From contig OY970280.1 of assembly GCA_963715865.1 (NCBI GenBank), positions 1,696,001 through 1,760,000 of the forward strand: 64,000 nt of DNA. The letters run 5' to 3'. The stretch is from Candidatus Bathyarchaeota archaeon (GTDB lineage: Archaea > Thermoproteota > Bathyarchaeia > Bathyarchaeales > Bathycorpusculaceae). Numbering within the stretch: the stretch's first letter is position 1; every line of letters begins with the position of its first letter. Positions 5 through 16,739 of the stretch are shown here, piece by piece. The position numbers and the translations under genes were made by a program. Under the pieces are notes generated by a model. That model worked only from the letters and a program-made list of their open reading frames with translations, made no database searches and was not told where the DNA came from.

Positions 5-856
5 CTATGGGCTAATCGTTAATGCCCTCGCTGTCCAAGGCATACTGTTAGTGACTACTTCAGCAGGAGCCTTCTTATCCAGCTTGTTCGTGTCATACCG
101 CATCCCCGTGAAAGCATAACTATCCGTGCCAATAGTGACAGTTACGGCGTTGTCGCTATCCGCGAAGCATGCATCCAAGAAACTTTCCATTGACGCAAGG
201 TACGCAAGTTTAATGTTGCCCGTAAACGCTCTCGCTCTTGGAACAATATATTTACTGAAAGCTCCTGCAATGCCTGCTGTTGCGGGAATAACGGGGTATC
301 GCTGCAACGTATTTTTAATAGTGAAATCCCAATCACTTACTACGTCAAGTGCGCTGCTTATCGTTACGACCGTATCATACCACGCCTTCGGCGAACCTGC
401 ATCGCTCGCGTATGTTGCGCCACTCACCATTGTACGTGTGGCATCTATGCTGATAGCCTCGCATGAAATTTTTACTTCTACGTTTCCGTCAACTTTTGCA
501 CTGACCTGTGCAGAATCAACAATGCAACCACGATAACGCATATAGTAAACTGTGCTGTCGTCTGGGCTAATCATCTGATCTTCCAGCGTGAAACTTGTGC
601 GTGCTAACGCTAACTTCAGAAAAGCGCTTGTTTCATAGGTATAAGTAAACTCTATTTTAGGCTTTTTATGCCCCAAACGAATGTACGCGAGGTCAGGCGT
701 GCCAACAGCGGGAATCTTTATTGTTGCCGGGTCATGGCTGGGACTAGTCTCCGTGACTACTCCAAGCCATAAAAACGAGGGAGTCGTCGGCGTAGTACCT
801 GGAACTGTTTCCGCAATATAGTACAGCTTATGATTTGCTGCAGTGAAAATACTCAT
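5..856 (-). CDS. Major tail tube protein
   Basis: 283 aa, beta-rich, follows neck genes. GGAGG SD favours the ATG at 856 over 874. Confidence 0.7.
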   Translation of the reverse strand: MSIFTAANHKLYYIAETVPGTTPTTPSFLWLGVVTETSPSHDPATIKIPAVGTPDLAYIRLGHKKPKIEFTYTYETSAFLKLALARTSFTLEDQMISPDDSTVYYMRYRGCIVDSAQVSAKVDGNVEVKISCEAISIDATRTMVSGATYASDAGSPKAWYDTVVTISSALDVVSDWDFTIKNTLQRYPVIPATAGIAGAFSKYIVPRARAFTGNIKLAYLASMESFLDACFADSDNAVTVTIGTDSYAFTGMRYDTNKLDKKAPAEVVTNSMPWTARALTISP

Positions 857-901
857 TTTTTTTGTTTCCTCCATTTTTTATTTTTTGTACATTAAGTACC
901 G

Positions 902-1336
902 TCAAGTTTTCTTATGGAAATACCGGGCGTTAACCGTCAAGGTGTGACGCAGTAAATTCTCAGCATCCCCAGCCTTCTCAGCAACAACACTAATAAAATT
1001 AACGCCTGACAACCCAGTCTGGTAAGCATGAATAATATTTCGGATAAGCTCAACAATTTTCTCGCGATCACTAGCACAAGTTGATGAACTCTTCACAGTT
1101 ACTTCTACAGTGATAGGTTCATCAACCTGCCACCAACCCGGCGAAATAGGCTTGACCCGAGCAGGAGCCGCCTTGTACGTAGTAATCAAGTAAACCTGAG
1201 TTACCTGATGCAGCTGCTTAGGCAAATCATACTGCAGTTTACCCCAAAAAATACTTGCTTTCGGAACCGCCTGAGCATCAGCCCATTGGGCCTGCAGAAG
1301 CGCATTCAATTTGTCACTATTACTTAAAACAGACAT
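902..1336 (-). CDS. Tail terminator/completion-like protein
   Basis: 144 aa, directly upstream of the tail tube gene, ends in the typical beta-strand (HTLTVNARYF), GGTGA SD. Confidence 0.55.
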   Translation of the reverse strand: MSVLSNSDKLNALLQAQWADAQAVPKASIFWGKLQYDLPKQLHQVTQVYLITTYKAAPARVKPISPGWWQVDEPITVEVTVKSSSTCASDREKIVELIRNIIHAYQTGLSGVNFISVVAEKAGDAENLLRHTLTVNARYFHKKT

Positions 1337-1461: not shown

Positions 1462-1671
1462 TTACGCGCCTGTCTCGCATTCCTCTCCTTTTGCTTCCAC
1501 GTCTTCCCCAGACCTAATAAGACGACTGAATTCAACGCTTGACAAAACTTGGTTAGACCCGTCTACGCGGGCGATTATGCGACTGCCACGTACGCGCCAT
1601 TTGCCGATTATGGCGTTTGTGACGATTGTGGTGTTGCCTGCGTCACCAAGTTTCTTAACGACTCGGCTCAT
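1462..1671 (-). CDS. Hypothetical viral protein, 69 aa
   Basis: ATG at 1671 overlaps the upstream stop (ATGA). Confidence 0.6.
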   Translation of the reverse strand: MSRVVKKLGDAGNTTIVTNAIIGKWRVRGSRIIARVDGSNQVLSSVEFSRLIRSGEDVEAKGEECETGA

Positions 1672-2471
1672 GGGTTGATCAAGCCTCCACGCCAATGAGG
1701 TATTTCTGTTCCTAACTGAGCTTCAGCGCTCATAGCAACCGTGCTAAAATTCATAAGCATACGGGTTAAATCGTCCTGGTAAGCTTGAACCGCACTTTTA
1801 TACGCGAATGTACTCACAGCCGCCTTCGCAATGGATAAGTCGCCTAAACGGTAGTCTGTGGCACCAACAAGCATGCCGCCGCTCGCAGCCACCAAAACGC
1901 CAAGGCAAGCCATATCCAAAGCCGCCAACATCGCAAACGGATAACGCGGATCACCTGATAAAACGCCTGGTATAAGGCTGTTTATGTACCTGTTCGCATG
2001 ATCAACCTGCGCTTGTATTCCTTGTTGGGATACTGGTAAACCGTAAACCGTGTAGGTGCCTGACGAGTCGGGTCCTTGAACGTTCAGGTGCGCCATAACT
2101 TCGCTGAGCGTGGTGAATGTGGGCAATGTAGGCGATGTGATTGGTTGCAACGGAAAAATTATGTAGAATACGCCTATTGTTGGAAAAGTCTGCGTGGCGC
2201 CGCTGGGCAAAGTAACGATGAATAAGCCTGTGCAGACGCCGTAAAAGTTGGTGTCACCTGTGCTCCAGTCATATTGCACTGTTCCCGCTGTCGGGCTAAT
2301 AACAGTTGCTGGTTTACTGAACAGGATTTGTCCGTTTTGGCTTATTTGAAAAACAACTGTGCAACCACCAGCTAAATTGAATACGGTGCCGTCATTGTTC
2401 TGCATGGTTGCAACTATGCTGGGCGACAAGTCGCCTGTGTTCATTTCAACGTTTGGAATAGACATTTTCAT
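1668..2471 (-). CDS. BppU-like Ig domain fused to a head-tail adaptor domain
   Basis: N-half DLSPSIV...AGTVQYDWSTGDT resembles the BppU N-terminal domain. C-half FTTLSEVMAHL...QVDHANRYINS resembles HK97 gp6/SPP1 gp15 adaptors. Confidence 0.6.
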   Translation of the reverse strand: MKMSIPNVEMNTGDLSPSIVATMQNNDGTVFNLAGGCTVVFQISQNGQILFSKPATVISPTAGTVQYDWSTGDTNFYGVCTGLFIVTLPSGATQTFPTIGVFYIIFPLQPITSPTLPTFTTLSEVMAHLNVQGPDSSGTYTVYGLPVSQQGIQAQVDHANRYINSLIPGVLSGDPRYPFAMLAALDMACLGVLVAASGGMLVGATDYRLGDLSIAKAAVSTFAYKSAVQAYQDDLTRMLMNFSTVAMSAEAQLGTEIPHWRGGLINP

Positions 2472-2483
2472 TTCTTCCTTTTT

Positions 2484-2894
2484 TTACGGTGCTGTCCCCG
2501 TAATTGTTATCACAAAGTTAAATGCTGCGCCTAATGTACTGGATGGAGAAACTGTTAAAGTGAACATTGCATAACAGGAGCCAGAAGCTGATAAAGAATA
2601 GTTTGTGCAGTTCCAAGATAAAGTTAGGTAAGACGGAAGATTTGTGGTTGACATCGTTAGCGTCTCAGCGGCATTACCAGTATTAGTTAAGGAAACTAAA
2701 GACGTGACAGATGTACCCGGGTCGATTGTTCCCCAATTGATAGAAGTAGGATTGGCAGTTAGATTGATAGTAATGATTTGTCCTGTGCTTGTAATTTGCT
2801 GCGTAACTGTTAAAATGCTGGATGCGATGGCTAACGCTAAAACAAATATCAACATGATGGCTGCAACAATAACTTTTTTGCTTAACATTTCCAT
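2484..2894 (-). CDS. Secreted or membrane-anchored Ig-like beta protein
   Basis: KK plus hydrophobic N-terminus, Ser/Thr-rich beta strands, N-x-S/T sequons. Confidence 0.65.
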   Translation of the reverse strand: MEMLSKKVIVAAIMLIFVLALAIASSILTVTQQITSTGQIITINLTANPTSINWGTIDPGTSVTSLVSLTNTGNAAETLTMSTTNLPSYLTLSWNCTNYSLSASGSCYAMFTLTVSPSSTLGAAFNFVITITGTAP

Positions 2895-2904
2895 TTTTCG
2901 CCTG

Positions 2905-3078
2905 TTAATCTGAATCGCTTTGAAGCGTAACCGTGCCTTTTTCAGTCTCTAAAATTACAGTACCCAAATTCGTCTGCAATATTGCTTGACCAGTGCTGTC
3001 CGTTAAATTTACTGCATGCGTCGGCAACGGCAGTGGCATTTTCTGGAAAAAAAACTTTAACAAGATGACGTCAAGCAT
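2905..3078 (-). CDS. Hypothetical viral protein, 57 aa
   Basis: Manual translation (MLDVILLKFFFQKMPLPLP...); fills the gap in the operon. Confidence 0.5.
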   Translation of the reverse strand: MLDVILLKFFFQKMPLPLPTHAVNLTDSTGQAILQTNLGTVILETEKGTVTLQSDSD

Positions 3079-3084
3079 TTTTAA

Positions 3085-5299
3085 TCACCATTCAGTTCCA
3101 TCGATGATAGCCCTGTATTTTTCCACGTAGTTCATAGCCATGATTCTGCGGCTGAACTTCTCAGCGTTATGCCTGCACATCTTCGCTGAAATATGCAAAT
3201 GATCCACAGCGTATGCCACAGCGTCCGCCATTGCTTCAGCGTCAGCGCAAACGACTCCGCCTTCCTTAACGGTTTCAGGCATGGCACCATCCGCCAAAAC
3301 AATCGCGGGCGTGCCACATGCCATCGCTTCGATAGGCACAAGCCCGAAGGGTTCACCCATCCGTGAAGGAACAAGCACGGCTTTCGCATTCTGCATTAAC
3401 TCAACTTTAGTCGCGTTGTCCGCATCAACATATATTTTAACGCGGTCACCATCACAGCGATTCTTAATCTGCTGCAAATAATTTGGGTCTTGCACAAATG
3501 AGCCGCCCACCAAATCAATCGGCAAATTAAGCTTTTCAGCTACGGCTAAAGCAACATGCGGCTGTTTAAACACGTCAAAACGCCCAACAAACAAGAGCCT
3601 ATTAGATTTCTGGCTTTTAAGCGGGTATTTGTTGAGGTCCACGCCATTATATACTCGCTGTGAAACCATCCCTTGTTGCTGGTAAACTTTTTGCATCCAG
3701 TCAGATATCGCTATGAAATTCAGATGGAACGGCGGCTTCTGCTTTAGCCACCACTCAGGATTTAATCCGCCGTGGTGAGTATGGCAAACTTTCAATTCAG
3801 GATGCTTAGCTTTAGAAAGATACTCGAAGCCAAGCCAGTTATGACCGTGAATTATGTCAAACTGCGTGAGCTGCGCCTCTATTTTGCGGTGTGCATCACG
3901 TTCAGTAGCAACCCAATCATGCTCTACTCTGTCGAATGGTGCACCGATAGAAACAATGCTGCATCCAGGAACAGCGGAACCGTCAGGCGCGAACACGGTG
4001 ACTTCGTGACCCATCAACGCGAGTTCTTCAGCGAGATCATAAACGATTTGTTCTAAGCCGCCGTAGTTTTGAGGCGGTACAGTGAATATAGGTGTACTCA
4101 GTAACCCAATTTTCAGTTTTGCATCCTTAGATTTAGCCGTGTGGACATGTATGGGTGCTTCTGTTTTGGACAGAATCAAAATGCCTGACGCTTCAGTTTT
4201 GCTTAATGTTCCTTTGGGTACAAGTTCAGCGCAGAAAAAGCTCCAGCCGTCATAACTGAGGACTTCAACTTTCGACTCGTAATCAGATGGCATTGACTTA
4301 TCAAGGAGTTGCTGGAAAGATTCAGGCGTATCCCAACGCACATGGTAGAGGTGCATGCCGCCGTCGCTTACATCAAATTCCTTGCAAGTTGGATTAGATT
4401 CTTTGCCTTCTGTGACGAGGTCTTTGCCTGTGCGCTTCATGTTTTCCTCCACAGTCTCGTAAGGACGCAGCACTGCAGCCCAATCTTTCGGGTTCGGCGT
4501 AGTAATCAAAACCCGTCGTGCAACGCGCAAAGCGCCTTTTATGAGGACGTCGGGGGTTTTGGAGTGCTCAACGATTTCGCCTAAAACGGCGGTGTCAAAC
4601 TGTTTATCTCGGAAGCCGCTTTCCTCTTCAGATATGAGTTTGTGCGCGTCTAACTTGTGGAATCTTGGCAGGTCATAAACATCCATGTCCACGCTTGTCA
4701 CCTGGTCTTCAAAGCCGCTGTGCAGAAATACTTGGCCTGTGTTGCAGCCGATGTTTATGATTGATTCGCCTTTGCGGATTTGCCTGAGGATCCATACGCT
4801 TCTGTCTTCCATTCGGTTAGCGGTTAATATCATGTCGGTGCTGCATTGGGGATGGCAGCGGACAACGATGCACATGAAGCCTAATTTTTGGAATAGTTCA
4901 GCGAGGTATTTTGGGCTGAAACCGCATTTGTGTGCGCCGCTACTGTTTTCTTGTCCGCCGAACAGCATGCAACTGGAATCTTGTGTCCATTCGCCTTTCA
5001 ACGTGATTTGCCGGCACTGTTCCTGCGTGTTTGCGGTGACGATTTCGACTTTGCCGTTTAATGAGAGGATGCGGTGTAACTCAGAAATGAACTGTTCAAG
5101 ATTGCGCCAGCTTATGTGCTCGATTGCGTAAGCGCTATAAACGTAGTCGTAGGCGCCTGATTCTGAAGGGCAGGGGCTTCTCAAAATCCGCGACTAAATC
5201 AACTGTGGGTAAGGCTCGGTTATCAACGTTCAACCCGTTACCAAGAAGCTTGGAAAACCTCGGATTCTCGCCGCCGCCAAGCTCTATATTTTTCATCAT
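3085..5299 (-). CDS. Tandem SAM methyltransferase-methyltransferase-GT4 glycosyltransferase fusion, one frameshift near 5164
   Basis: Frame from ATG 5299 gives IELGGG...DLVADFEKPLPF; the 699-aa frame continues ESGAYDYVYSAYAIEH, a second MTase (NIGCNTG...EIVEH) and GT4 (YGGLE...EPFGLVPIEAMACG). About 737 aa if joined. Confidence 0.8.
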
Positions 5300-6195
5300 A
5301 TTACTCCTTTTTCGATGTTTAGTTGGTATTGGACTTGTTCAAGACTCATGGCATAGCTGCATGACCCGCATAGTTCAATTGTACCGCGTTTTCCCGTTCT
5401 GTGCAGCTCACGCAAACCATCCATGCTACGCCAAACCTCAAGAACACTCTGTTTATTTACGTCTCCAACGATGTTTCTGCCGTTGGGGTCATAGCAGCAC
5501 GCGCAGACTTCGCCGTTCCATAAGATAACCATGCAACCGTAAATCATGCTGCAGGGAACATCAATCGGGTTATTTGCGCAGTTGCCGTTGATGTCTTTGT
5601 TCGTTGTCAAATTATGGAATGAAATCAAACTGCCGTATTGCTGCGTGAGTAGGTCGCGCTCCAAGTCAGATATGATGTTTGCGGACGCGCCTAAACTCAC
5701 GGTTACGCCAGAGCCAGACAAAGCCTCAAGTAAACCGCGGAGCCGGTGCAAATTCTCTTTAGGCAAGCCAATGAGGCGCTCGTAGGTTTCGTCGAAGTAA
5801 GCGTAGGCGCTGAAAGACAAAAGCAAGTTTTTAACTGTCTTCAATTTTGCTATGACATTTTCATCGATGCAACTGAAGTTTGTTGGCACCGCGATTTTTG
5901 TATTTGGCAACTTCTCATTAATTTTTTGGAGAATAAGGTGCCAATCTGGGTTTAGGAAGAATTCGCCGTAATGCACAGGCACAATTTCCCTGCAAGGCTG
6001 CTTCCAACTAGAGACCTCATCAAGAATTTTATCGATTAGTTGCATGCTCATTTTGCCTTTAGGACGCGTCATAGACCTGTAACCGCAGAACACGCATCGG
6101 GCATTGCAGAAGCCGTAGGTTTCAAGATGCAAATACGGGTATTCTAAAGGTTTTAAGGTATCACGGTAATATTCGGTGTACTCTTGACAATTCAT
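5296..6195 (-). CDS. Radical SAM/SPASM domain protein
   Basis: CNARCVFC (CxxxCxxC) and C-terminal C...CACC...CxxC; ATGA overlap at 6195. Confidence 0.88.
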   Translation of the reverse strand: MNCQEYTEYYRDTLKPLEYPYLHLETYGFCNARCVFCGYRSMTRPKGKMSMQLIDKILDEVSSWKQPCREIVPVHYGEFFLNPDWHLILQKINEKLPNTKIAVPTNFSCIDENVIAKLKTVKNLLLSFSAYAYFDETYERLIGLPKENLHRLRGLLEALSGSGVTVSLGASANIISDLERDLLTQQYGSLISFHNLTTNKDINGNCANNPIDVPCSMIYGCMVILWNGEVCACCYDPNGRNIVGDVNKQSVLEVWRSMDGLRELHRTGKRGTIELCGSCSYAMSLEQVQYQLNIEKGVI

Positions 6196-7190
6196 TGCCA
6201 GAACACCTTGTATTTTTCGCGGATGATTGCCCACGTGTTTTTTAACGCTGTTGCCCTAGCATTCAAACCCATTTCCGCAACTTTATCAGGATTCTTTTGG
6301 AAAAACTTGATTTTCTCCGCGATTGCATCTGGACTTCTTATCGGCACCACAAACCCATCTACGCCTTCAGTGATTAATTCGTTGGCGCCTGCGCCTTCAG
6401 TCACAATCACAGGACGCCCATAACTCATAGCTTCCAACACAGGAATTCCGAAGCCTTCCGTCACAGACGGTTGCACGTAAACGCTTATTCTTTTGTAGAA
6501 TTCTGCTGTATCGGGGATTACGCCTGCGCCGCCTAAACTTTCCGTGCCAGGTCCTGCCAGCCGCGCCTGAACATCGACTTGCTTGAGCGCTTGCACGTAA
6601 TAGATTTGCCCTTTGTCAGGTCCGTTTACGCCAAGGTGTCCAACCGTGAATGTTTCGGGCATAGGCGGGATTTCTTTAGGCGGGTTGCATCCATGCGGAA
6701 TAACTGTGTAATCGGAGATTCCGAGTTTCTGTTTGAGGTATTCGCCGCTTACTTTGCTGTGAACTATAACGGTGTCAGCGGTTGCGACGTGGCGCATGTA
6801 CAACTGAAAAAGCGTTGGGTTGTTGAGGTGCGGATAAGGAAAATTGTAGCCGAGTTTTTGGTGTTCTTCTCGGCTTAATTCAATGTTGTGGGGTGCTACG
6901 TCAGCGATGATTTGTGCGCTGTGCCGCTGCCTAATGTTTAGCGTAGTTAAGGGAAAAGGGCTGCCGTAAATTACGGCTGTTTGTGCGTCAGGGCTGAAAA
7001 GGCTCGCAAAGTAGTCGTATAGGAAAGGCGATTCAGGCTGCTCATATAGTATGGGACTACATGTTTTAGCGTCTATGATCCAGTTTAGGCATGTGGATTC
7101 TTTGAGGGCTTGTATTATGTTTTGGCAGACTACGCCGCCGCCCGTGTCATTGCGGATTAAGGTGTTAGTGACGAAGCAACTGGATTTCAT
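6192..7190 (-). CDS. Glycosyltransferase family 4 (GT-B)
   Basis: EGFGIPVLEAMSYG motif, 332 aa. Confidence 0.9.
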   Translation of the reverse strand: MKSSCFVTNTLIRNDTGGGVVCQNIIQALKESTCLNWIIDAKTCSPILYEQPESPFLYDYFASLFSPDAQTAVIYGSPFPLTTLNIRQRHSAQIIADVAPHNIELSREEHQKLGYNFPYPHLNNPTLFQLYMRHVATADTVIVHSKVSGEYLKQKLGISDYTVIPHGCNPPKEIPPMPETFTVGHLGVNGPDKGQIYYVQALKQVDVQARLAGPGTESLGGAGVIPDTAEFYKRISVYVQPSVTEGFGIPVLEAMSYGRPVIVTEGAGANELITEGVDGFVVPIRSPDAIAEKIKFFQKNPDKVAEMGLNARATALKNTWAIIREKYKVFWQ

Positions 7191-7204
7191 TCAGTTTTTG
7201 CCTC

Positions 7205-7903
7205 TTAGATTGAAAGAACCGACACTTCCCCGCTTGTCTTAACCTTCATTTGTCCTGCATGACTAAATTTTACGTCAGTGAACACTTTTGTTTCGTAACC
7301 ATATTTTTTGGCTAACATGCAAAAATAAAAGTCCTCTGAAGGCGCTATCTGATCCCATACGAACCATGGTTCAGGGATTTTCTCGAAGACTTCACGTTTT
7401 ATGAGGATGAAGCCGAATCCTGTGACGTCTACAGGTATCCAGTTGCTTCCCTTTATCCATTCATTGATGGCTGCGAAGTGGTTGTGGTCGCCTATGTCCA
7501 TCCACATGGCGTAAGGGTTGCCCTGGGCTTGTTTAGCACGGTACAAGGCGCCTGCAATCGGAGCGTTTAAACTGAGCAGTTGACGCAAGGACTGATTAAT
7601 GTCTGTCGGCGACTCAGGAATCATGTCAGAATCCACAAACAACAGGTGCGTCACATTCGGGTTTGCTAACGCATCTTTCACCATTTGATTCCGCGTTGTG
7701 TCAAGCGGTGCGCCGCGGCTGATTATGGTGACTTTGTCGAAGTCAGGTTGAGCCGTGTATTTTAATGGAGTATAGGTGGTTTCTGCCCATTCTAATGTGA
7801 CGTTGCCTTCATGGGGAATGCAGATGCAGATTAAGGGTTTTTGCTGTTGTTTATTGTTGAAACCGCTGCTTTTTTCATTCTCGATTTTCTCGTTCCATGC
7901 CAT
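7205..7903 (-). CDS. GT-A (GT2-like) glycosyltransferase
   Basis: FVDSD DxD motif, VTGFGFILI, SEDFYFC, C-terminal His. Confidence 0.85.
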   Translation of the reverse strand: MAWNEKIENEKSSGFNNKQQQKPLICICIPHEGNVTLEWAETTYTPLKYTAQPDFDKVTIISRGAPLDTTRNQMVKDALANPNVTHLLFVDSDMIPESPTDINQSLRQLLSLNAPIAGALYRAKQAQGNPYAMWMDIGDHNHFAAINEWIKGSNWIPVDVTGFGFILIKREVFEKIPEPWFVWDQIAPSEDFYFCMLAKKYGYETKVFTDVKFSHAGQMKVKTSGEVSVLSI

Positions 7904-7919
7904 AAATAATCAACCTCAT

Positions 7920-8630
7920 CTAAAACTGTATCCACGCCGTTGGAGCACCACCGCCTCCAGACGCAAAGAAAGTGGCGATGCAACCAGCAAACCCATCGAT
8001 ACTGTCAGGGTCATCAACACTGCTACTTGCGGTTCCAGTTGAAGAAACAATTTTCTCTAAATATGCATTTCCAAGGTTAGGCGATACTTGTACCCCGTCA
8101 AGCAATGTAAAACCATTAGCTGGATTTGACAAATTGCCATAGGCTTCTGCTGCTACACTTCCAATCCATAATTCGTTAGCTTGTGTCGTTGCAGACGTTG
8201 TGCCAGTGTCCATTATTTTGGGGTTTGATATTGCGAAATTGCTTGCTGTTTGGTCAAGAAAACTGCTTGTTGCCACTCCACTGTACTCGCAAATATTAGC
8301 AACAGAAGCATAACTTGGAGTTCCTGACAAGTTCACGGTAATATTTTTAGATGCACCTGAACCAACTACTCCTAACCATATTTCAGAATCCAGCCAAAAA
8401 TGACCATCACCATACGGATAACCATTGATGCTTTTCTGTTTAGTCCATGCCACATTGGTTTGGCTGATGCTTGAAACAGTTACAGCACCATTATAATCCG
8501 ATATGCCTATCGTGGCTATCAAAACGTTTCCTGAGGCAGGCGTGTTAGTCATAGACGGTGAAATCGAACTGCCACTTCCAACTGCATGACCATTAGTGGA
8601 GCCGTCGCCTTGAACCCGCGTTATAGTCAT
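7920..8630 (-). CDS. Putative virion beta-sandwich protein (spike tip/receptor-binding-like)
   Basis: MTITRVQG start, Ser/Thr/Gly-rich strands, located right after the repeat spike gene. Confidence 0.5.
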   Translation of the reverse strand: MTITRVQGDGSTNGHAVGSGSSISPSMTNTPASGNVLIATIGISDYNGAVTVSSISQTNVAWTKQKSINGYPYGDGHFWLDSEIWLGVVGSGASKNITVNLSGTPSYASVANICEYSGVATSSFLDQTASNFAISNPKIMDTGTTSATTQANELWIGSVAAEAYGNLSNPANGFTLLDGVQVSPNLGNAYLEKIVSSTGTASSSVDDPDSIDGFAGCIATFFASGGGGAPTAWIQF

Positions 8631-8655
8631 TTAGTTTCCCCAGTCCATTTAATAA

Positions 8656-10497
8656 TTATACGCCATGAAAGTTATCTGCGCTGAAACGAGCAGCCGCCTT
8701 TCCATAAAGCAAATTCAAATTATTACCTAGAAACACGTATTTCGCTAAGAAACTTGTTGTTGGGTCACCTGCCAGAACGTAGCCTTGACCGCTGTTAACT
8801 GCGACGCCTCCAAGGTAAACCATGTTTGACAGCGCCAAGGAAAGGTCTGCCCGTTTACACGCTACCGATGGAAACTGAGTGCCGCTTGTGCCGACTAAAA
8901 TTATGTTTCCTGTTACGGAACCATAAGCCTGCGAGTAATCATTGCAAATTTGCCCTGACATAGTCGCTGTGATTTGCGTAACAACTGCACCTGAAAGCAC
9001 CGTTACTATACTTCCAGATAACACAGTTATAGCGCCACTAATCGAAACGATGTTTCCTGAAACATTAGCGACAACGTTTGCTGATGCGATGTTAGCCATT
9101 GTGCCTGAAGCTAAACTGACAGTTTGACCTGAAATTAACACGCCGACTCCAGAGGCAACGAACAATCCTGATAAAGTTGCAGTCGGCAAAGAAATGAATT
9201 GCCCTGACAGCGTAGCGACGGGTTGTTGAACGAACGCTCCTGAAGCAACCGCCACCATTTGCCCGCTAATCAATACACCTACACCTGACCCAACAGTGAC
9301 AGCTAATCCAGATGCAACCACTAGTCCAGATTGAGTAGAAACAGGCAAAGATATGCTAAGTCCAGAAGCTAAATAGGCACCTGAAGCAACCGAAACAGTT
9401 TGACCGCTAATTAAAACGCCTAAGCCTGAATTAACGGATACTGAAGCGTTAACGTATAGTCCTGACGCAACCTGAACTGTTTGCCCAGAAATTAAAACTC
9501 CAAGCCCTGAGTTTACCGAAACAGCAGCATTAACGTATAATCCAGATGCAAGATAAACGCCTGAGCCAACAGCAACTGTTTGTCCACTGATTAACACGCC
9601 GAGTCCAGAGTTGATGGAAACTGCCGCGTTCACGTAGGACCCTGAAGCGACTGTTACAATGTTTCCACTTACATTAACAGCATTACCAGAAATAGACGTT
9701 GAGGGCACAGTTACGTTCAAACCCGATGCAACAACCAATCCCGAAAGAGTGGCTGTTGGCACTCTTACGTTTGCGCCTGACGCAACCTGAACTGTTTGCC
9801 CAGAAATTAAAACTCCAAGCCCTGAGTTTACCGAAACAGCAGCATTAACGTATAATCCAGATGCAAGATAAACGCCTGAGCCAACAGCAACTGTTTGTCC
9901 ACTGATTAACACGCCGAGTCCAGAGTTGATGGAAACTGCCGCGTTCACGTAGGACCCTGAAGCGACTGTTACAATGTTTCCACTTACATTAACAGCATTA
10001 CCAGAAATAGACGTTGAGGGCACAGTTACGTTCAAACCCGATGCAACAACCAATCCCGAAAGAGTGGCTGTTGGTAGACTAATAAATTGCCCAGACTGTG
10101 TTGAAACGGGTAATGCAACGTTTAATCCTGATGCTAAGTAGCCGCCTGAAGTTAAAGTAACGTTTTGTCCACTGACTTGAACGATGTTTCCGCTGACAGA
10201 TGTTTGGACTGTTCCGCTGACTATGACGGCGCCGCTGACCTGTCCGCCTTGATTTGCTACTGTGACGATTTGACCGCTAACAGCAACAACATTACCGCTT
10301 ACTGATGTACCGACAATTTGCCCAGAGACCTGCACGATTGCACCTGAAACCGCTGGACTAACAATATTTCCCTGTCCATCCTGAACAGCAACAACTTCAG
10401 ATTGCACATTACTGGTGCCTACTGTATTCTGGATTGTGCGCATTAAGACGCCGCTTGTAGGCTGCGCACCAATTTGAATCCTAGTGTCTATGCTCAT
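8656..10497 (-). CDS. Ser-Gly repeat beta-solenoid virion spike/fibre protein
   Basis: 613 aa, about 57 SG dipeptides by hand count at mostly 6-12 residue spacing, almost uncharged repeat region, globular C-terminus; immediately after the capsid gene. Confidence 0.65.
   Translation of the reverse strand: MSIDTRIQIGAQPTSGVLMRTIQNTVGTSNVQSEVVAVQDGQGNIVSPAVSGAIVQVSGQIVGTSVSGNVVAVSGQIVTVANQGGQVSGAVIVSGTVQTSVSGNIVQVSGQNVTLTSGGYLASGLNVALPVSTQSGQFISLPTATLSGLVVASGLNVTVPSTSISGNAVNVSGNIVTVASGSYVNAAVSINSGLGVLISGQTVAVGSGVYLASGLYVNAAVSVNSGLGVLISGQTVQVASGANVRVPTATLSGLVVASGLNVTVPSTSISGNAVNVSGNIVTVASGSYVNAAVSINSGLGVLISGQTVAVGSGVYLASGLYVNAAVSVNSGLGVLISGQTVQVASGLYVNASVSVNSGLGVLISGQTVSVASGAYLASGLSISLPVSTQSGLVVASGLAVTVGSGVGVLISGQMVAVASGAFVQQPVATLSGQFISLPTATLSGLFVASGVGVLISGQTVSLASGTMANIASANVVANVSGNIVSISGAITVLSGSIVTVLSGAVVTQITATMSGQICNDYSQAYGSVTGNIILVGTSGTQFPSVACKRADLSLALSNMVYLGGVAVNSGQGYVLAGDPTTSFLAKYVFLGNNLNLLYGKAAARFSADNFHGV
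9461..10074. repeat. Perfect 299-bp tandem duplication (period 315 bp, 105 aa)
   Basis: 9461-9759 appears identical to 9776-10074 by eye. Confidence 0.92.
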
Positions 10498-10537
10498 TTC
10501 GTTTTGTTCCTAAAGTTACTTTAAATTGTTGGGGAAA

Positions 10538-10558
10538 GCCTCAGTTTAAAGATGAGGC
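10538..10558 (-). terminator. Hairpin terminator/attenuator after the capsid gene
   Basis: GCCTCA-N9-TGAGGC stem followed by TTT on the minus strand. Confidence 0.5.
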
Positions 10559-10598
10559 AAAGAAAATAATTCGCTATTACTGTTTACATTCACTAAGG

Positions 10599-11540
10599 TT
10601 AACTTGTTGATAATCCCTGTACTTCCACGATTGCTTCTCCATACGTCACAACCGGCGCATATCTTGTCGTCAACGTTACGTCTACAGAGTCAAATTCCTT
10701 CTTAATTTCAACATCACTCATCAATGGGCGTTTGATTACGAAGAAACCCAACGGCGAATAAGCTGCGCTCACGTTTTTGCCTGTGCTGATAACGAACGCG
10801 TTTCCTACTGGAACAACCATGCTGATAACAACGTCCATGCCGAAGATAGTGCCGATTTTGCCCGTCTGCGTCGGCGGCTGACCCGCTGCGCCTTCATTGC
10901 CGAATTGCGCCCAAAGGCTGAATTGCGGTAGGAACATGACGTCTCGCGAGTTCACCGGGTTAAGCAAGATTGTATCTGGCTCTAAACTGTAGGTTTCAAT
11001 GACTGCTTTAGCCTGCAAAATGTCTTTAGAGCCAAGTGTGCCTGCAACGGTGAATGCTGAGCCTGTGGATCCTAAGCTTCCGCCGCCTGCGCTGAAAATG
11101 TTTGCTGATGCTCCGCCGACTCCGCCTGCTGCGCCGCATGCGTTCTTTATAACGGTCATGCAGTCATTGTCGATCGTGTAGGCCATGCGCCTTGCTAATC
11201 TGCGCAGTTGGTCCTCGATTACGGGTATGTAGAGGTCTTCGATGTTTTCTCTGGTTATGCGTTCACGTAAGCCTTTCTTGTACGGCGTAGTTGTGATGTA
11301 CGCATAGGGCGTAAAATCAAGCGGTACTTCGGCGCCTTCGCCCACTTCGCTGATTGTAGCTGCTCTGCTGCCAGATTGCTTCACGAAAGTTGCGGTTCTT
11401 CCTGCAACCAACGGAAACTCCGGGAACAGTTTTTTGATTACTAGCGCGGGCATGGTTAACTCGATGATTTTCTGGTGCAACGCGGGATACGCTATTGCGC
11501 CTGTGTCATACCATGTGAATGCATTTTCGTTTAATGCCAT
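10599..11540 (-). CDS. Major capsid protein (HK97 fold)
   Basis: 313 aa with typical pattern (EVGEGAEVP, RRLARRMAYTID, GTIFGMDVV); follows protease and cement genes. Confidence 0.88.
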   Translation of the reverse strand: MALNENAFTWYDTGAIAYPALHQKIIELTMPALVIKKLFPEFPLVAGRTATFVKQSGSRAATISEVGEGAEVPLDFTPYAYITTTPYKKGLRERITRENIEDLYIPVIEDQLRRLARRMAYTIDNDCMTVIKNACGAAGGVGGASANIFSAGGGSLGSTGSAFTVAGTLGSKDILQAKAVIETYSLEPDTILLNPVNSRDVMFLPQFSLWAQFGNEGAAGQPPTQTGKIGTIFGMDVVISMVVPVGNAFVISTGKNVSAAYSPLGFFVIKRPLMSDVEIKKEFDSVDVTLTTRYAPVVTYGEAIVEVQGLSTS

Positions 11541-11565
11541 TTTCTATCAGTTCTCCATGTTGTTT

Positions 11566-12069
11566 TTAGGGTTCAAAGAGTATGTAGATTGTGCTGCCTG
11601 AGACTGCTGCCGCGGTCGTTAATGCTTTGCCGATGACAGTGCTATTATAATTGTTTATGAAAGGCCCGAAGCCTGAAGAAACTACGTAGCCTGAGTTTGT
11701 GTTGACTAAGAGCCCGCTTACAAGTGCGTTTGTTATTGGAGGCAAAGTTTTCACGGTAGCTATGTACGCTGAAGAAGTTACAAGTAAGTCGCCTGCTGTC
11801 ACTGCTGTACCGTCAGTTATTACCCTGCAAACACCTCTGGCGACAACGGTAACGACTTGCCCTGAAACTTGAGTGCCCAACGCGATACCCATCACGTTTG
11901 CAGCATACGCGTTCGGAGTAGGAATAGCGATTGGCGGATAAACAGCGCTTGAGGTAGTTGCGATTGATACGACTTGACCCATAGTTATGGCTGCGCCAGC
12001 GATTGCACTGATTAAGTAGCGGTCTTGAACTAGCGGTGTGGTTCCTTCAAAAATTCCTGTAACTGACAT
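11566..12069 (-). CDS. Capsid cement/decoration protein (DUF2190-like) with an SG-rich insertion
   Basis: AGAAITMGQVV...GIA...VTVVARGV...AVTAGDLL...VIGKAL pattern. Confidence 0.7.
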   Translation of the reverse strand: MSVTGIFEGTTPLVQDRYLISAIAGAAITMGQVVSIATTSSAVYPPIAIPTPNAYAANVMGIALGTQVSGQVVTVVARGVCRVITDGTAVTAGDLLVTSSAYIATVKTLPPITNALVSGLLVNTNSGYVVSSGFGPFINNYNSTVIGKALTTAAAVSGSTIYILFEP

Positions 12070-13223
12070 TATTGTATTCCTACCATTTTCTTGTTCGCTT
12101 TAAGCAAATCTTTGAACCAGCCATATTGCCCAGCGTCAGTTTTCACTGCCATCTCGTCAGTCGGGATTACGCCTGCGCCATGAGATGCGCGTTTCGCTTC
12201 AGCAGGTTTATCGCAACCTTCCGCTTCGCCCTCAGCATCAGCATCAGCTTTCTTGCCTTTTTTGGCTTCAGCTTCCGCATCTGCTTCGCCTTCAGCTTCG
12301 CCGTCGCCTGATTCGTCAAGTTGCTTTTTCAACGCGGCTATTTTCTTGCCGACGCGTGCCCTAAACTTTTTCAAGTCATCAACAGAAGCGTTCTTGTTTC
12401 CGCTTCCGCCAACGCTTTTAATTGAGTCGCTTAAGCTTTCGATCTGGCCCATGATGTCTTCGTAAGTTACGTCTTTGCCTGCGCCTTCGCCGTCTGTAAC
12501 GTTTACTACTGCTGCCTGTTGTGGAGAAGCAACTTGTTCACCATCTAATTTGGTAGACATGTGCTTCACATCCTTTTCTGCTTTTAATTTTGTTTTGTCG
12601 TCGGGTTCTTGCACCTCACGGTTAGAGCCCCCATCCTTGTTACTATTAAGTGACTGTGAATCCGTAATTTTTTTAGTTGCCGCATTCCACTGATCCTCAT
12701 TCATAGCCGCCGCAAACCCAACAGGCTTAAACGCCGTATTCTCATACGCAGGCGAAGCAACAATGCTGAGCTCACGAACTTTCGGGTGATGAACAATCTC
12801 CCATGCACCCGGGCAAAGGTGAATGAGCATACCTTCGCTGCGGCTGTTCTGTTTGCATTTTGAGCATTCTACGTCGTCTGAATCCACTTGAACGCTTACG
12901 TGGTTGACGTAGTTGTGCAGGATTTTCTCTATGAGTTTTTCGTCGCCGACTTCAGCGCGAAACAGGACCTGGTCGCCGCTTCGTTCGGCCTTAGCTACTT
13001 TACCCATAACCATCAACGCAGACTCCGCATGATCCACCCGAAGCTGCGCCCCAATTAAACTGCTAGTAAAGTAATCTAGATCTTCAGAGGGCACTTGCCA
13101 TTTGTTGCTGTTTACTGAAGTGTCGATGGCTACGCCTTCAATATTTATGAGTTTATTTTGTAGGGCATATTGTGCGTCTACGCCTTCAGCCGCTTTAAAC
13201 TGCACAAAATATTGTAGTTTCAT
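12069..13223 (-). CDS. Prohead protease fused to a scaffolding domain
   Basis: H (RVDHA), S (VSVQV) and RELSIVASPAY protease motifs; acidic/basic low-complexity C-terminus. Confidence 0.82.
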   Translation of the reverse strand: MKLQYFVQFKAAEGVDAQYALQNKLINIEGVAIDTSVNSNKWQVPSEDLDYFTSSLIGAQLRVDHAESALMVMGKVAKAERSGDQVLFRAEVGDEKLIEKILHNYVNHVSVQVDSDDVECSKCKQNSRSEGMLIHLCPGAWEIVHHPKVRELSIVASPAYENTAFKPVGFAAAMNEDQWNAATKKITDSQSLNSNKDGGSNREVQEPDDKTKLKAEKDVKHMSTKLDGEQVASPQQAAVVNVTDGEGAGKDVTYEDIMGQIESLSDSIKSVGGSGNKNASVDDLKKFRARVGKKIAALKKQLDESGDGEAEGEADAEAEAKKGKKADADAEGEAEGCDKPAEAKRASHGAGVIPTDEMAVKTDAGQYGWFKDLLKANKKMVGIQ

Positions 13224-13264
13224 GATTTAAGTCACTTTGAAAAGACTTATGTTGAGATTCTTGA

Positions 13265-13276
13265 CTATATATAAAG
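13265..13276. promoter_or_regulatory. Near-palindromic TATA box, possibly bidirectional
   Basis: CTATATATAAAG lies ~45 bp upstream of the protease ATG (minus) and ~55 bp upstream of the 13332 ORF (plus). Confidence 0.55.
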
Positions 13277-13331
13277 GTGAAATTTGGCTTTTCTGCCAGT
13301 TAATGAAACAAAGCAAAGAGACGAAAACTGA

Positions 13332-13493
13332 ATGAAATACACAGTGAAAGAGAGACTCAACATTTTAGTTTGGTGGACAATAGTTTTATGTATAGCTGTT
13401 CCAATCGGTTTATTTTGGAATTTCTGGGCAGGCTTCGCTATTAGTACAGTTTCTTCTATTAGTTGGGTTTTATGGTATATTTTTAGGACATAA
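13332..13493 (+). CDS. 53-aa two-TM membrane protein, antisense to the late operon
   Basis: Manual translation MKYTVKERLNILVWWTIVLCIAVPIGLFWNFWAGFAISTVSSISWVLWYIFRT; fills the gap exactly. Confidence 0.6.
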   Translation: MKYTVKERLNILVWWTIVLCIAVPIGLFWNFWAGFAISTVSSISWVLWYIFRT

Positions 13494-13495
13494 CT

Positions 13496-14191
13496 TTATT
13501 CTTTTTGATTTTTGAAGTTTCGTTGCGTCTTATAACCCCGATAAAACTCGCGAACCATCTGCTCTTCACCAACAAACAAATCCGCAGCATGCAAACATTT
13601 CACGCGAGTATCAACATAAACCTTATAGCCGTTTTGGGCGGCTTTCCAGCAGAAATAAAAGTCTTCCCCGCAACCCAGTGAAGTTTTAAACCAAGGCTCA
13701 GGCATTTTCAGGAAAACGTCGCGGTTAACCAGCATGAAACCGAAACCTGTCGCGTCAACTTCGACAAGTTTGTCATGCGGATAATTCTTAGCAAATTCAA
13801 CGTCCCAATCAACGTCAACGCCCTCTTGCAACTTCCAAGGCGCCGAACGGTCTTTTCTTCTTACCACCATTGACGTGTAAGGCGGACGCCTATCATAATA
13901 CAAACCTGCAACGATAGGAAGCGAATCCAAGTACAGTTTAACTAAGCCATCATCGGGCGGCAGCACATCATCATCCAAGAATAGGAGGTATTCGGCGCCC
14001 CATGCCAAAGCTTCATGGACAGATGCGTTGCGTGCGTTGTCGAGTGGGAACATGGTGTTGAAGCTCCAGCGCACGTTTTCAGGATGCGCCAAGAGGCACG
14101 CTTGTGTGAGTTGAGAGCCGAAGGATAGGCACCATTCAGGTTTAAGCTGTCGGCGCGTGCAGACTGCTATGTTGATTTTGCCAACTTGCAA
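13496..14191 (-). CDS. GT-A (GT2-like) glycosyltransferase
   Basis: FLDDD, ATGFGFMLV, GEDFYFC motifs; paralogue of 7205-7903. Confidence 0.85.
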   Translation of the reverse strand: MQVGKINIAVCTRRQLKPEWCLSFGSQLTQACLLAHPENVRWSFNTMFPLDNARNASVHEALAWGAEYLLFLDDDVLPPDDGLVKLYLDSLPIVAGLYYDRRPPYTSMVVRRKDRSAPWKLQEGVDVDWDVEFAKNYPHDKLVEVDATGFGFMLVNRDVFLKMPEPWFKTSLGCGEDFYFCWKAAQNGYKVYVDTRVKCLHAADLFVGEEQMVREFYRGYKTQRNFKNQKE

Positions 14192-15027: not shown

Positions 15028-15348
15028 TTAATAGTAAACGTCTTCATCTCTCACAATCCCGCAAACACAATGCGGATGCCAATTCACCGCGAAAGTATCC
15101 TCATCAAGCCACTCGCCATACGGAAACATATCAAGCAAGTCATCCGGGTCCTCAAGCTCAAAGAAATCTCCAGACCTGCTATCGCAATCTTCACATAAAT
15201 TAGGAGAAGGCGCCAACGCCTCTGTTACGTAACGCCAAACCGAATAGTGAATCGCAGGATTAACCACAGCGGCCTTAAATGCTGTGAAAGCGTGAAAAGC
15301 TGCCACAAGAGGCAAAACCTCATTAAGCTCTTGAACGGTAAGGCTCAA
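15028..15348 (-). CDS. Minor head morphogenesis protein (SPP1 gp7/Mu F-like C-terminal domain only)
   Basis: CEDC...HPHCVC motif, directly after the portal gene. Confidence 0.7.
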   Translation of the reverse strand: MSLTVQELNEVLPLVAAFHAFTAFKAAVVNPAIHYSVWRYVTEALAPSPNLCEDCDSRSGDFFELEDPDDLLDMFPYGEWLDEDTFAVNWHPHCVCGIVRDEDVYY

Positions 15349-16739
15349 GAGTTTTTCACTTCAGTAATCAAAAACGATTTTCCGTCTTGCTGAATCATCG
15401 CTTGCTTCTGCGTTCCTTTAGGCGCTGGAAGCATCTTAGGCTGTTGCTGATTTTGGATGGGAAGAGGCGTTTCAGGTTCAGGCGGCGTCTCTGGAAAACC
15501 AAGCTGCACTCTTGCCTCAGAAATCTGAACTATGCCAAGTTGCACTAAAGGAACCATGTAAGCCGCTTTTTCCTGCAAAGAAGCTTCCCAAATAGGCTTC
15601 CACTTAATCTCGGGAATTTCCGTACCCTCGCCAAACTGCATTTCAACAAGCTGCTTAAACAACTTCGTTTCCAAAACGTCGCTAATAAGTTCCTGTATCA
15701 TCCTGAGTCTAGTGACGTATTCTTTCATGACTGTATCGCTTGTGGCGCGGTTTGTGCCTTGAGATTCACCCATGAAGATTTTTGGCACGCCTAAGACGGC
15801 TTCGCGTTGCTTGTAGAGGTAGTCAAGCCAAAACTGCAAGTTAACCCCTGTCGTCAACGAAGGCACCACATCAACCGTAACGTCACCGCGAACGAAAGTG
15901 TCTGAGGCGACTCTGCGGTTCTGGAACGTACTCATAAGCGATGTTAATTGCGCATCGCTGAAAGGTCTCTCTGGAGTGCCTGCTTTAATGACAAGCATTG
16001 GTTTCGTGTAAGTGTGAACTATCGTTGCGAAATCGTTTTCAAACTGGTCAAGCAAAGCTTGAACCTTCAAAAGCGGACGCAGCAGCGAGGTGCCATAGCT
16101 GAATTCGTACCACCATGATTTAGCGCCCCAGCAAAACTGAACCATGTCTTGCGCAATAAACGCGACAGGAGGAAAAGTCAAAAGCTGAATGTATCCGAAG
16201 ACGTCGCCATACTCATTTCTGCGAACGCGAATATGCACGGGATCCAGCGGTTTTAGCCAACTGATCGCGCCTGTCTGTTCATCCTTGCACAGCTCCAAAT
16301 AAGCATTGCCGAAAACCAAAATGTCCGTAGCTACAATGCGAAGAGTATGCAAAATATTCTGTTCATCAAGCCAATCCGTAAGCCACTCGCGAACCGCATC
16401 ATCCCCGCCATCCAACTCGAAACCATTGCTCATAGCCAAGTTAACGGTGACATCAATCGCCGCTTTAATGTATGGGCTAAAATTGTATTGGTCCTTGTAT
16501 TTGGGCAGGTCCTCGATTGGCACGGCGCCCCAGACACGTTCCCAATAAGCCGTGTAGGGCGGAACCACGAAGCCTGCGCCACTGCCCTTAAGCATGAATT
16601 TGTTGACGTAGCCCATGAGGTTGCTGTCTTTTTCCCACGTGACAGGGATTTCTTCGCGGATTTGCTGCGTGCTAACTTGTGGCGGAACGTCACGTTGCGC
16701 GGTGAATGCGGATTTGTCTATGGTGCTTTTCAAAGGCAT
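15345..16739 (-). CDS. Portal protein
   Basis: 464 aa after TerL; FGNAYLE, LDPVHIRV, GTSLLRP, VLGVPK motifs. Confidence 0.9.
   Translation of the reverse strand: MPLKSTIDKSAFTAQRDVPPQVSTQQIREEIPVTWEKDSNLMGYVNKFMLKGSGAGFVVPPYTAYWERVWGAVPIEDLPKYKDQYNFSPYIKAAIDVTVNLAMSNGFELDGGDDAVREWLTDWLDEQNILHTLRIVATDILVFGNAYLELCKDEQTGAISWLKPLDPVHIRVRRNEYGDVFGYIQLLTFPPVAFIAQDMVQFCWGAKSWWYEFSYGTSLLRPLLKVQALLDQFENDFATIVHTYTKPMLVIKAGTPERPFSDAQLTSLMSTFQNRRVASDTFVRGDVTVDVVPSLTTGVNLQFWLDYLYKQREAVLGVPKIFMGESQGTNRATSDTVMKEYVTRLRMIQELISDVLETKLFKQLVEMQFGEGTEIPEIKWKPIWEASLQEKAAYMVPLVQLGIVQISEARVQLGFPETPPEPETPLPIQNQQQPKMLPAPKGTQKQAMIQQDGKSFLITEVKNS

Follow-up and report, generated by a model that had tools for sequence, protein, structure and literature searches.

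Genes for sugar-modifying enzymes that stand among the structural genes of a tailed archaeal virus raise the question of what these enzymes act on. Exploring a 64,000-nucleotide stretch of a Candidatus Bathyarchaeota archaeon (contig OY970280.1, positions 1,696,001 to 1,760,000; hereafter the window), we examined such a locus in an integrated virus, where glycosyltransferases (GTs), methyltransferases (MTases) and a radical S-adenosylmethionine (SAM) enzyme are encoded behind the capsid gene together with a large protein carrying Ser-Gly (SG) repeats. The best reading of this locus, for which we see about an equal chance of being right or wrong, is that a mobile cassette combining a fibre with its glycosylation enzymes would glycosylate the virion fibre in the cytoplasm. 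A 7.4-kb block (3085-10497) would be this cassette, inserted into a ~40-kb provirus behind its capsid gene and ahead of its head-tail genes. Its genes, preceded by a further GT gene of the same family, are in the order of transcription:

13496-14191, minus strand: GT-A 1, phrog_1574, between the small genes on the portal side and the protease gene
8656-10497, minus strand: Ser-Gly-repeat fibre ('spike'), 613 aa, Ser/Gly/Val-rich, candidate glycan acceptor
7920-8630, minus strand: 236-aa Ser/Gly/Thr-rich protein without Pfam, PHROG or NCBIfam match
7205-7903, minus strand: GT-A 2, phrog_1574, like A197 of Sulfolobus turreted icosahedral virus (STIV)
6192-7190, minus strand: GT4, 332 aa, Glycos_transf_1, with EX7E motif
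5296-6195 (span from the likely ATG), minus strand: BtrN-like radical SAM enzyme, 299 aa, with CX3CX2C motif
3085-5184 as an open reading frame (ORF), to ATG 5299 in full, minus strand: MTase-MTase-GT4 fusion with two class I MTase domains and a GT4 domain, frameshifted in the assembly

In the proposed pathway, the 613-aa fibre would be made in the cytoplasm, since it lacks a signal peptide, and soluble virus enzymes would O-glycosylate it there, the A197-like, metal-dependent GT-A and two retaining GT4 domains building a short glycan from host nucleoside-diphosphate (NDP) sugars. The sugars would then be O-methylated by the two SAM-dependent MTase domains, and a sugar hydroxyl would be oxidised by the BtrN-like radical SAM enzyme. 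The glycosylated fibre would finally decorate the virion, most likely its head, and serve either in adhesion to the glycosylated host surface or as a shield of the particle. Gene content, folds and motifs, the soluble character of the enzymes, the recurring linkage of fibre and enzyme genes and the place behind the capsid gene in two unrelated head modules are shown by the sequences; we infer which protein is the acceptor, in which order the enzymes act, that the fibre attaches to the virion, when the genes are expressed and what biological role results.

The genes from fibre to fusion follow one another at spacings of 25, 16, 14, -4 and -4 nt. Each negative value marks an ATGA overlap: the start of the radical SAM gene overlaps the GT4 stop, and the true start of the fusion gene, ATG 5299, overlaps the radical SAM stop. 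The tight or ATGA coupling described in the initial annotation of the locus is thus real, and so is the lack of genes for NDP-sugar synthesis, given that domain scans of the window proteins detected no such domains in the cassette. A search for membrane anchors, which that annotation had named as evidence against its interpretation, revealed no transmembrane segments in the cassette enzymes.

GT-A 1 and GT-A 2 are paralogues (36% identical). Neither has a Pfam-A match at E<=0.01 and both match phrog_1574, while some distant homologues carry PF03452, PF13641 or PF00535. Residues D91 and D93 (DxD), E190, D191 and H215 are invariant in 25 GT-A sequences, both window paralogues included. Sequence-only PDB searches with both proteins gave nothing useful. 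The AlphaFold2 (AF2) model of GT-A 2 shows a GT-A fold (pLDDT 90.5, pTM 0.87), and a Foldseek search with this model returned 326 PDB matches at E<=1e-3, all of GT-A type. The top match was STIV A197 (E 3.8e-13, TM 0.63/0.75), followed by the collagen hydroxylysine glycosyltransferases LH3 and ColGalT1, Mnn9 and mimivirus R699, and no DNA-base GT was found among the top matches; the fold of GT-A 2 is thus nearest to A197 and to protein-glycosylating GT-A enzymes, in keeping with the virion-directed role that had been suggested from the sequence. The A197-type family is large, comprising 10,976 clusters at E<=1e-3, 2,752 at 1e-10 and 81 at 1e-30. GT-A 1 has a 70%-identical copy at the same place in two loci that lack the remaining cassette (L005 and L015), and is in this reading a separate lone enzyme near the portal that may modify another virion protein.

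Lone GT-A genes were also observed elsewhere. A more distant GT-A of the same broad family is encoded directly upstream of the capsid gene in L047 (6584-8408), L048 and L049, whose capsid shares 36% identity with capsids of Pseudomonas podophages, Tr60_Ab31 among them; by sequence, this pairing suggests that the theme extends to bacterial phages. The Methanobacteriales virus vir323 (L057, BK063679.1) carries at 7381-7980, between head genes and a tail protein gene, a phrog_1574 GT-A annotated as hypothetical protein, which is the best annotated-phage match of the window GT-A (tblastn, 50,697 phage records).

Both GT4 domains score above the Glycos_transf_1 gathering cutoff of 26.4 bits (80.0 bits for the GT4, 76.3 bits for the GT4 domain of the fusion) and carry the EX7E motif, as EGFGIPVLE and EPFGLVPIE, respectively. 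The window GT4 also matches SdgA, SdgB and GtfA weakly, at 23-36 bits versus cutoffs of 575-800 and so below equivalog level. When 400 other genomes of the class were scanned at E<=1e-40, the GT4 domain of the fusion was found in no more than two, which belong to the same genus, and there it is fused to a GT-A. These two fusions (L061, 1721-3544; L062, 5262-7070) encode 602-607 aa on short contigs, and their GT4 domain is 45% identical to that of the window.

The radical SAM enzyme carries its CX3CX2C motif at C30/C34/C37, invariant in 13 homologues, and only five conserved cysteines in its C-terminal part (C215, C233, C234, C276 and C279). Its Pfam SPASM score is 43.5 bits and the full seven-Cys SPASM motif with two auxiliary clusters was not found, so that of the earlier designation 'radical SAM/SPASM' the first half stands and the second gives way to a BtrN-like enzyme with one auxiliary cluster. 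A profile search of the PDB yielded BtrN at E 3.5e-20, the next match being YydG at 7e-6. BtrN is a one-auxiliary-cluster (Twitch-type) sugar dehydrogenase, which makes an oxidation directed at a sugar a better fit than a role as peptide maturase.

The candidate acceptor consists of 15% Ser, 14% Gly and 18% Val and contains 24 [VIL]SGxx[VIL] motifs; besides the missing signal peptide, it has no N-terminal hydrophobic segment. Its gene harbors a perfect 315-bp tandem duplication (9461-10074; 1.9 copies, 100% matches), which is either a recent repeat expansion or an assembly artefact. The C-terminal 100 aa of the fibre align end-to-end with the C-termini of SG-repeat proteins in L098, L100, L113 and L117 (E 1e-16 to 1e-11), all of which precede GT-A genes. 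Neither a single-sequence nor an alignment scan of IMG/VR revealed relatives of this C-terminus, and BLASTP of the window C-terminus against the SG-repeat proteins of L042-L046 was not significant (E 0.16-5); the fibre is linked to this subgroup by the common repeat motif and by phmmer links via metagenome proteins. The fibre gene stands directly behind the capsid and cement genes and ahead of the head-tail genes, which is the usual place of genes for head fibres and decoration proteins such as phi29 gp8.5 and SPP1 gp12.

Two further features were seen next to SG-repeat genes. A ~90-aa domain found at the C-terminus of SG-repeat proteins (NSGDIYxGG...SGxGxxLEPGE) also occurs as stand-alone copies just upstream of the repeat protein, at 831-1184 of L072 and as similar 117-aa ORFs in L075 and L078. 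Such loci carry, in addition, a conserved, helical-looking ORF of 115-139 aa between fibre and GT-A.

The cassette is not confined to the window. IMG/VR loci L040-L046 encode GT-A, GT4 and MTase-MTase, ending in a GT4 that matches the C-terminal domain of the fusion (E 1e-71 to 1e-115), and GT4 homologues stand directly behind the GT-A in these loci as well as in metagenome loci. The window and L041-L046 belong to tailed viruses. In L041 and L044 the block lies behind a prohead protease gene (Peptidase_S78); the gene that follows the protease in L041 encodes the major head protein (phrog_24667), and L044 has a matching 381-aa ORF without Pfam match. BLAST detected no similarity between the head proteins of L041 and those of the window, and the cassette follows the capsid gene in two unrelated head modules. 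L042, L043 and L044, in which prohead protease and major head protein come first, carry (V/I)SG(Q/E/D)xV-repeat proteins, as in the window spike, between head protein and GT-A, and in L044 a LamG protein and a p267-like ORF (p267 being the gene that bounds the window cassette downstream, see below) stand behind the block. Larger cassettes add a hexapeptide acetyltransferase, more MTases, a GT2, a UDP-sugar dehydrogenase, an epimerase and a DegT aminotransferase, as well as a B12-radical SAM enzyme and a polysaccharide pyruvyl transferase. As judged from their gene content, these additions speak for an elaborate glycan rather than a DNA mark.

To count the association of fibre and enzymes, we scanned metagenomes with the GT-A alignment, which returned 76 loci and, together with the IMG/VR loci, 72 loci having a close GT-A. 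An SG-repeat ORF on the same strand and within 6 kb was found upstream of the GT-A in 25 of the 30 loci with at least 2.5 kb of upstream sequence, and a GT4 or MTase-MTase-GT4 gene downstream of it in 31 of the 32 with at least 3.5 kb of downstream sequence. The survey for co-occurrence with SG-rich proteins that the initial annotation had proposed hence came out in its favor, and no ORF with more than one SG-repeat motif was present in 35 cassette-less relatives of the provirus.

These relatives are 35 loci, 5 from genomes and 30 from IMG/VR, whose capsid genes are 60-74% identical to that of the window; close capsid relatives were found in metagenome-assembled genomes of Bathyarchaeia or Bathyarchaeota. 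Throughout these 35 loci, the fibre gene is missing along with those for GT4, radical SAM enzyme and fusion, and GT-A 1 is present only in the two loci named above. The downstream gene p267 is conserved in 29 of the relatives, behind the capsid gene at variable distance, and the interval between the two (L004-L038) is hypervariable, holding three small ORFs or proteins of 428-811 aa with, where scanned, LamG, polysaccharide-lyase-like or zinc-ribbon matches. Five large interval proteins begin with a domain like the 236-aa protein of the window. The latter resembles the N-terminal part of proteins of 588-811 aa at the same position, among them one with a LamG lectin domain (L007) and one with a weak polysaccharide-lyase-like match (L004), and its nearest Atlas clusters are 88-96% viral. 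Given this variable content, we concluded that the interval behind the capsid gene is a cargo hotspot. Being cargo at this hotspot, the cassette is no stable feature of the virus lineage. The earlier interpretation as virion glycosylation is partly supported, by the GT-A fold, the lack of anchors and the co-occurrence with SG proteins.

The window derives from a single-contig 2.35-Mb genome. The provirus occupies window bases 1 to ~23,700 and is transcribed on the minus strand; counting ~16 kb to the left of the window, which hold tail genes and then host leuB and RPA, the element measures ~40 kb, and host genes (luciferase-like monooxygenase, ilvD, leuA) are found from 24.1 kb on. Besides the genes listed above, the mapped features are, in the order of transcription:

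16959-18251, minus strand: terminase, first of the mapped genes
15345-16739, minus strand: portal, after terminase; small genes then precede GT-A 1
12069-13223, minus strand: protease-scaffold, head gene flanking the cassette
11566-12069, minus strand: cement-like protein, Phage_cement_2 (weak), phrog_673
10599-11540, minus strand: HK97-type capsid, Phage_capsid_4, phrog_1650
10498-10598, minus strand: 101-nt spacer between capsid gene and fibre gene
2905-3078 region, minus strand: 57-aa ORF between fusion gene and p136
2484-2894, minus strand: p136, membrane-anchored Ser/Thr-rich beta-sandwich
1668-2471, minus strand: p267, with p136 the downstream boundary of the hotspot (1668-2894)
902-1336, minus strand: p144, after p267
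5-874, minus strand: tail tube, last gene of the map

Two GT-A genes, GT4, radical SAM and MTase-MTase-GT4 were indeed found interleaved with protease, cement, capsid and spike genes on the minus strand, as first described. The description 'all on one strand' applies to these named genes and not to a 53-aa ORF with two hydrophobic helices (13332-13493, plus strand), which lies in antisense orientation within the 272 nt that separate GT-A 1 from the protease gene and could be a lysogen-expressed membrane protein. This gap also contains a TTTATATA box (~13268-13275), ~52 nt upstream of the protease ATG, that would serve the head operon. Most other apparent gaps are taken up by small ORFs, e.g. 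at 2905-3078, and the 101-nt spacer between capsid and fibre genes is the sole sizeable non-coding gap in the block, with a T-rich run and motifs of the TTTAAA type. The cement-like protein carries a variable surface insertion that is longest in the window provirus, L004 and L009. The idea that an SG-rich cement insertion tracks the cassette was rejected, given that L004 and L009 carry an insertion of similar size without cassette. The p136 protein has an N-terminal hydrophobic segment (Kyte-Doolittle (KD) 2.86), 31% Ser+Thr, a match to a choice-of-anchor-D beta-sandwich and several N-X-S/T sequons, and by its sequence seems to be exported or held in the membrane, although encoded amid structural genes. 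Homologues of p136 occupy the same spot in L021, L022 and L085, and L085 has the same hotspot neighbours as the window.

Together, the GT-A fold matches, the absence of transmembrane segments from the enzymes, the signal-less fibre, the synteny of fibre and enzymes, and the fact that our scans revealed no hydroxymethylase, flippase, oligosaccharyltransferase or initiating phosphoglycosyltransferase favor O-glycosylation of the fibre in the cytoplasm. A number of observations weigh against it. Gene position is the sole pointer to attachment of the fibre to the virion, the AF2 model of its C-terminal domain reached a pLDDT of 33 (5-sequence alignment), and the conserved Ser-Gly pairs could be a structural turn motif rather than acceptor sites. 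In the window, the fusion gene is frameshifted in the assembly, and promoter- and terminator-like motifs occupy the spacer behind the capsid gene. A membrane-anchored p136 cannot belong to a virion assembled in the cytoplasm, and since p136 is membrane-anchored, moron-type cargo does occur at the hotspot. As to the survey, many loci are near-duplicates or kin, so that independent events are far fewer than the counts given above, and five cassette-bearing loci (L039, L040, L041, L046 and L122, of which L040 and L122 are one contig) lack an upstream SG-repeat ORF. Hidden Markov models of both head-gene sets detected no capsid, portal, protease or terminase of either head type within 10 kb in most metagenome loci, the neighbours there being S8 subtilases, GH18, GH5 and LamG proteins and an integrase. 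The flanks of the metagenome blocks (L100, 3274-18138; L110, 378-9906; L113, 959-9897; L091, 1590-4625) encode S8 subtilases, paired GH18 proteins, a GH5 cellulase-like protein and an InlB B-repeat protein, and L100 has two S8 subtilases followed by the integrase. Given these neighbours, the cassette is not strictly tied to head genes and some of its carriers may not be tailed viruses; the unit is thus mobile and often set among carbohydrate-active and adhesion-type genes.

The same observations bear on other explanations of the locus. An unlikely one is lysogenic conversion, in which the soluble enzymes would alter the dolichol-linked glycan of the host at the cytoplasmic face and thereby change the S-layer or surface glycan, blocking superinfection or altering adhesion, with the fibre gene as a mere neighbour. 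Archaeal N-glycans are built by MTases together with GT2 and GT4 enzymes that are soluble or peripheral (PMC10384203), and the best NCBIfam match of the fusion GT4 domain is Agl16, though at 71 bits versus a cutoff of 575. The exported or membrane protein p136 at the hotspot, the promoter-like motifs upstream of the fibre gene and the sporadic occurrence of the cassette, missing from 35 relatives, would also suit such a role. However, Pfam/NCBIfam-type scans revealed no AglB, flippase, initiating phosphoglycosyltransferase or dolichol-phosphate initiating GT in the cassette, the related cassettes examined likewise lack the first three, and close homologues of the cassette enzymes were not found in the host genome. 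The cassette also lies on the same strand within the late structural block, away from integrase and immunity genes, and lysogenic conversion leaves the conserved linkage to a signal-less SG-repeat fibre unexplained. We consider it quite improbable, too, that the glycan is placed on another acceptor, be it a different virion protein (tail tube, capsid or cement protein), a polysaccharide that is free or linked to a lipid, or some small molecule, while the fibre binds the glycan or simply co-travels. The five cassettes without upstream SG-repeat ORF point in this direction, as do the lone family GT-A genes beside capsid genes without fibre (L005, L015, L047-L049 and vir323), the pyruvyl transferase and NDP-sugar genes of the larger cassettes, which are typical of polysaccharide loci, and the frequent LamG and lectin-like neighbours. 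Against this stand the order of fibre and enzymes, kept in 25 of 30 informative loci, the cement-protein insertion, which does not track the cassette, and the fact that we saw no genes for a polymerase, for export or for a lipid carrier.

The window copy itself might be inactive or decaying cargo even if the family function holds elsewhere, to which we assign a small probability. Its largest enzyme gene is frameshifted at ~5166-5184, which splits the first MTase domain: the N-terminal ~38 aa are read from ATG 5299 in one frame and the long ORF continues in another from ~5166-5184 on, homologues align across both frames, and intact fused MTase-MTase-GT4 homologues measure 727-787 aa. C4 and C3 homopolymers adjoin the shift, however, making an assembly error plausible, all other cassette genes are open, and what is left of the ORF, starting with TTG, still codes for the second MTase and a complete GT4 domain. 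Glycosylation or hypermodification of viral DNA is very improbable. Radical SAM and MTase enzymes do occur in some DNA hypermodification pathways. Yet the top fold matches include no DNA-base GT, the parts of the provirus that were scanned contain neither a hydroxymethylase gene nor one resembling thymidylate synthase, pathways for amino and uronic sugars are encoded in related cassettes along with a pyruvyl transferase, and the genes lie in the structural and not in the replication module, although phage GTs often modify DNA (PMC12619734).

Cytoplasmic glycosylation of the fibre finds partial parallels in known systems. STIV A197 is an essential GT of a virus whose capsid protein is glycosylated (PMC10551542); like GT-A 2, it is a minimal, soluble DxD GT-A of an archaeal virus (~200 aa). 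The two are 21% identical and related at the level of the fold, STIV is a non-tailed, membrane-containing virus, and A197, whose own acceptor is unproven, stands alone without GT4, MTase, radical SAM or repeat-fibre partners. Cluster O mycobacteriophages are described as using an O-MTase and three GTs to modify capsid and tail tube (PMC11600133), and virion glycosylation in clusters F and O is attributed to Freeman et al. 2023 there and in PMC12619734. These phages resemble the window provirus in being tailed viruses with GT and MTase genes near structural genes, here an O-MTase and tandem GTs that modify virion proteins in the cytoplasm. They differ in that the reported acceptors are the C-termini of capsid and tail tube, with no dedicated repeat fibre; they also have no radical SAM enzyme and a bacterial host, and tblastn of GT-A, GT4 and the fusion GT4 domain against the 50,697 phage records revealed no mycobacteriophage homologues. 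Among the giant viruses, mimivirus provided R699 as a fold match of GT-A 2, and A064R of Paramecium bursaria chlorella virus 1 (PBCV-1), a virus-encoded GT-GT-MTase fusion whose action on a virion protein does not depend on host machinery (PMC7826918), is a multidomain GT and MTase fusion like that of the window. Its domain order and fold families are different and homology to the window fusion is not established; the PBCV-1 glycans, moreover, are N-linked to a capsid protein in a eukaryotic host.

Outside viruses, the serine-rich-repeat (SRR) and SD-repeat adhesins (GtfA/GtfB, SdgA/SdgB) likewise pair a Ser-containing repeat protein with dedicated cytoplasmic GT4 enzymes, but these substrates are exported cell-wall adhesins with accessory Sec systems, whereas the window fibre is signal-less and viral. 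BtrN, the 2-deoxy-scyllo-inosamine dehydrogenase of butirosin synthesis, shares with the radical SAM enzyme the CX3CX2C motif, a C-terminal domain with a single auxiliary cluster and a carbohydrate-type context; the similarity is strongest in the C-terminal domain, and the window enzyme is not accompanied by aminoglycoside pathway genes. As for archaeal tailed viruses, head appendages of HFTV1 engage host glycans (PMC12494034), virion proteins of HRTV-DL1 stain as glycoproteins although this virus encodes no GT (PMC10384203), and a survey of Bathyarchaeia viruses mentions a GT only for a spindle-shaped virus (PMC10848311). In the literature searched, we found no description of virus-encoded virion glycosylation in tailed archaeal viruses. 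The initial annotation had known of no such system in an archaeal tailed virus, a statement that needs softening in view of the lone family GT-A in structural modules of other archaeal viruses (e.g. vir323) and of the larger cassettes in IMG/VR contigs.

Giant viruses and some mycobacteriophages are known to glycosylate their virions with enzymes of their own, and STIV is suspected of doing so. The present analysis defines a recurrent unit of SG-repeat fibre, A197-like GT-A, GT4 and MTase-MTase-GT4 fusion, with or without a radical SAM enzyme, and names a candidate acceptor, which makes the idea testable without culturing Bathyarchaeia. More tentatively, and with a good deal less confidence than in fibre glycosylation as such, it is possible that the widespread mobile cassette makes proteoglycan-like fibres: the A197-like GT-A would initiate on Ser-Gly, the GT4 domains would extend, methylation and BtrN-like oxidation would tailor, and accessory amino-sugar, pyruvyl and B12-radical SAM genes would diversify the glycan in a manner akin to bacterial surface-antigen loci. 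If true, tailed archaeal viruses would have their first defined O-glycosylation system encoded by the virus itself, and the A197-type family of ~11,000 clusters would gain a function. A role is in any case suggested for a large unannotated GT-A family, and a sugar-directed BtrN-like radical SAM enzyme may act in the tailoring of protein glycans. Ecologically, a glycan coat on the fibres could control how such viruses adsorb to sediment archaea, which are abundant and have glycosylated envelopes.

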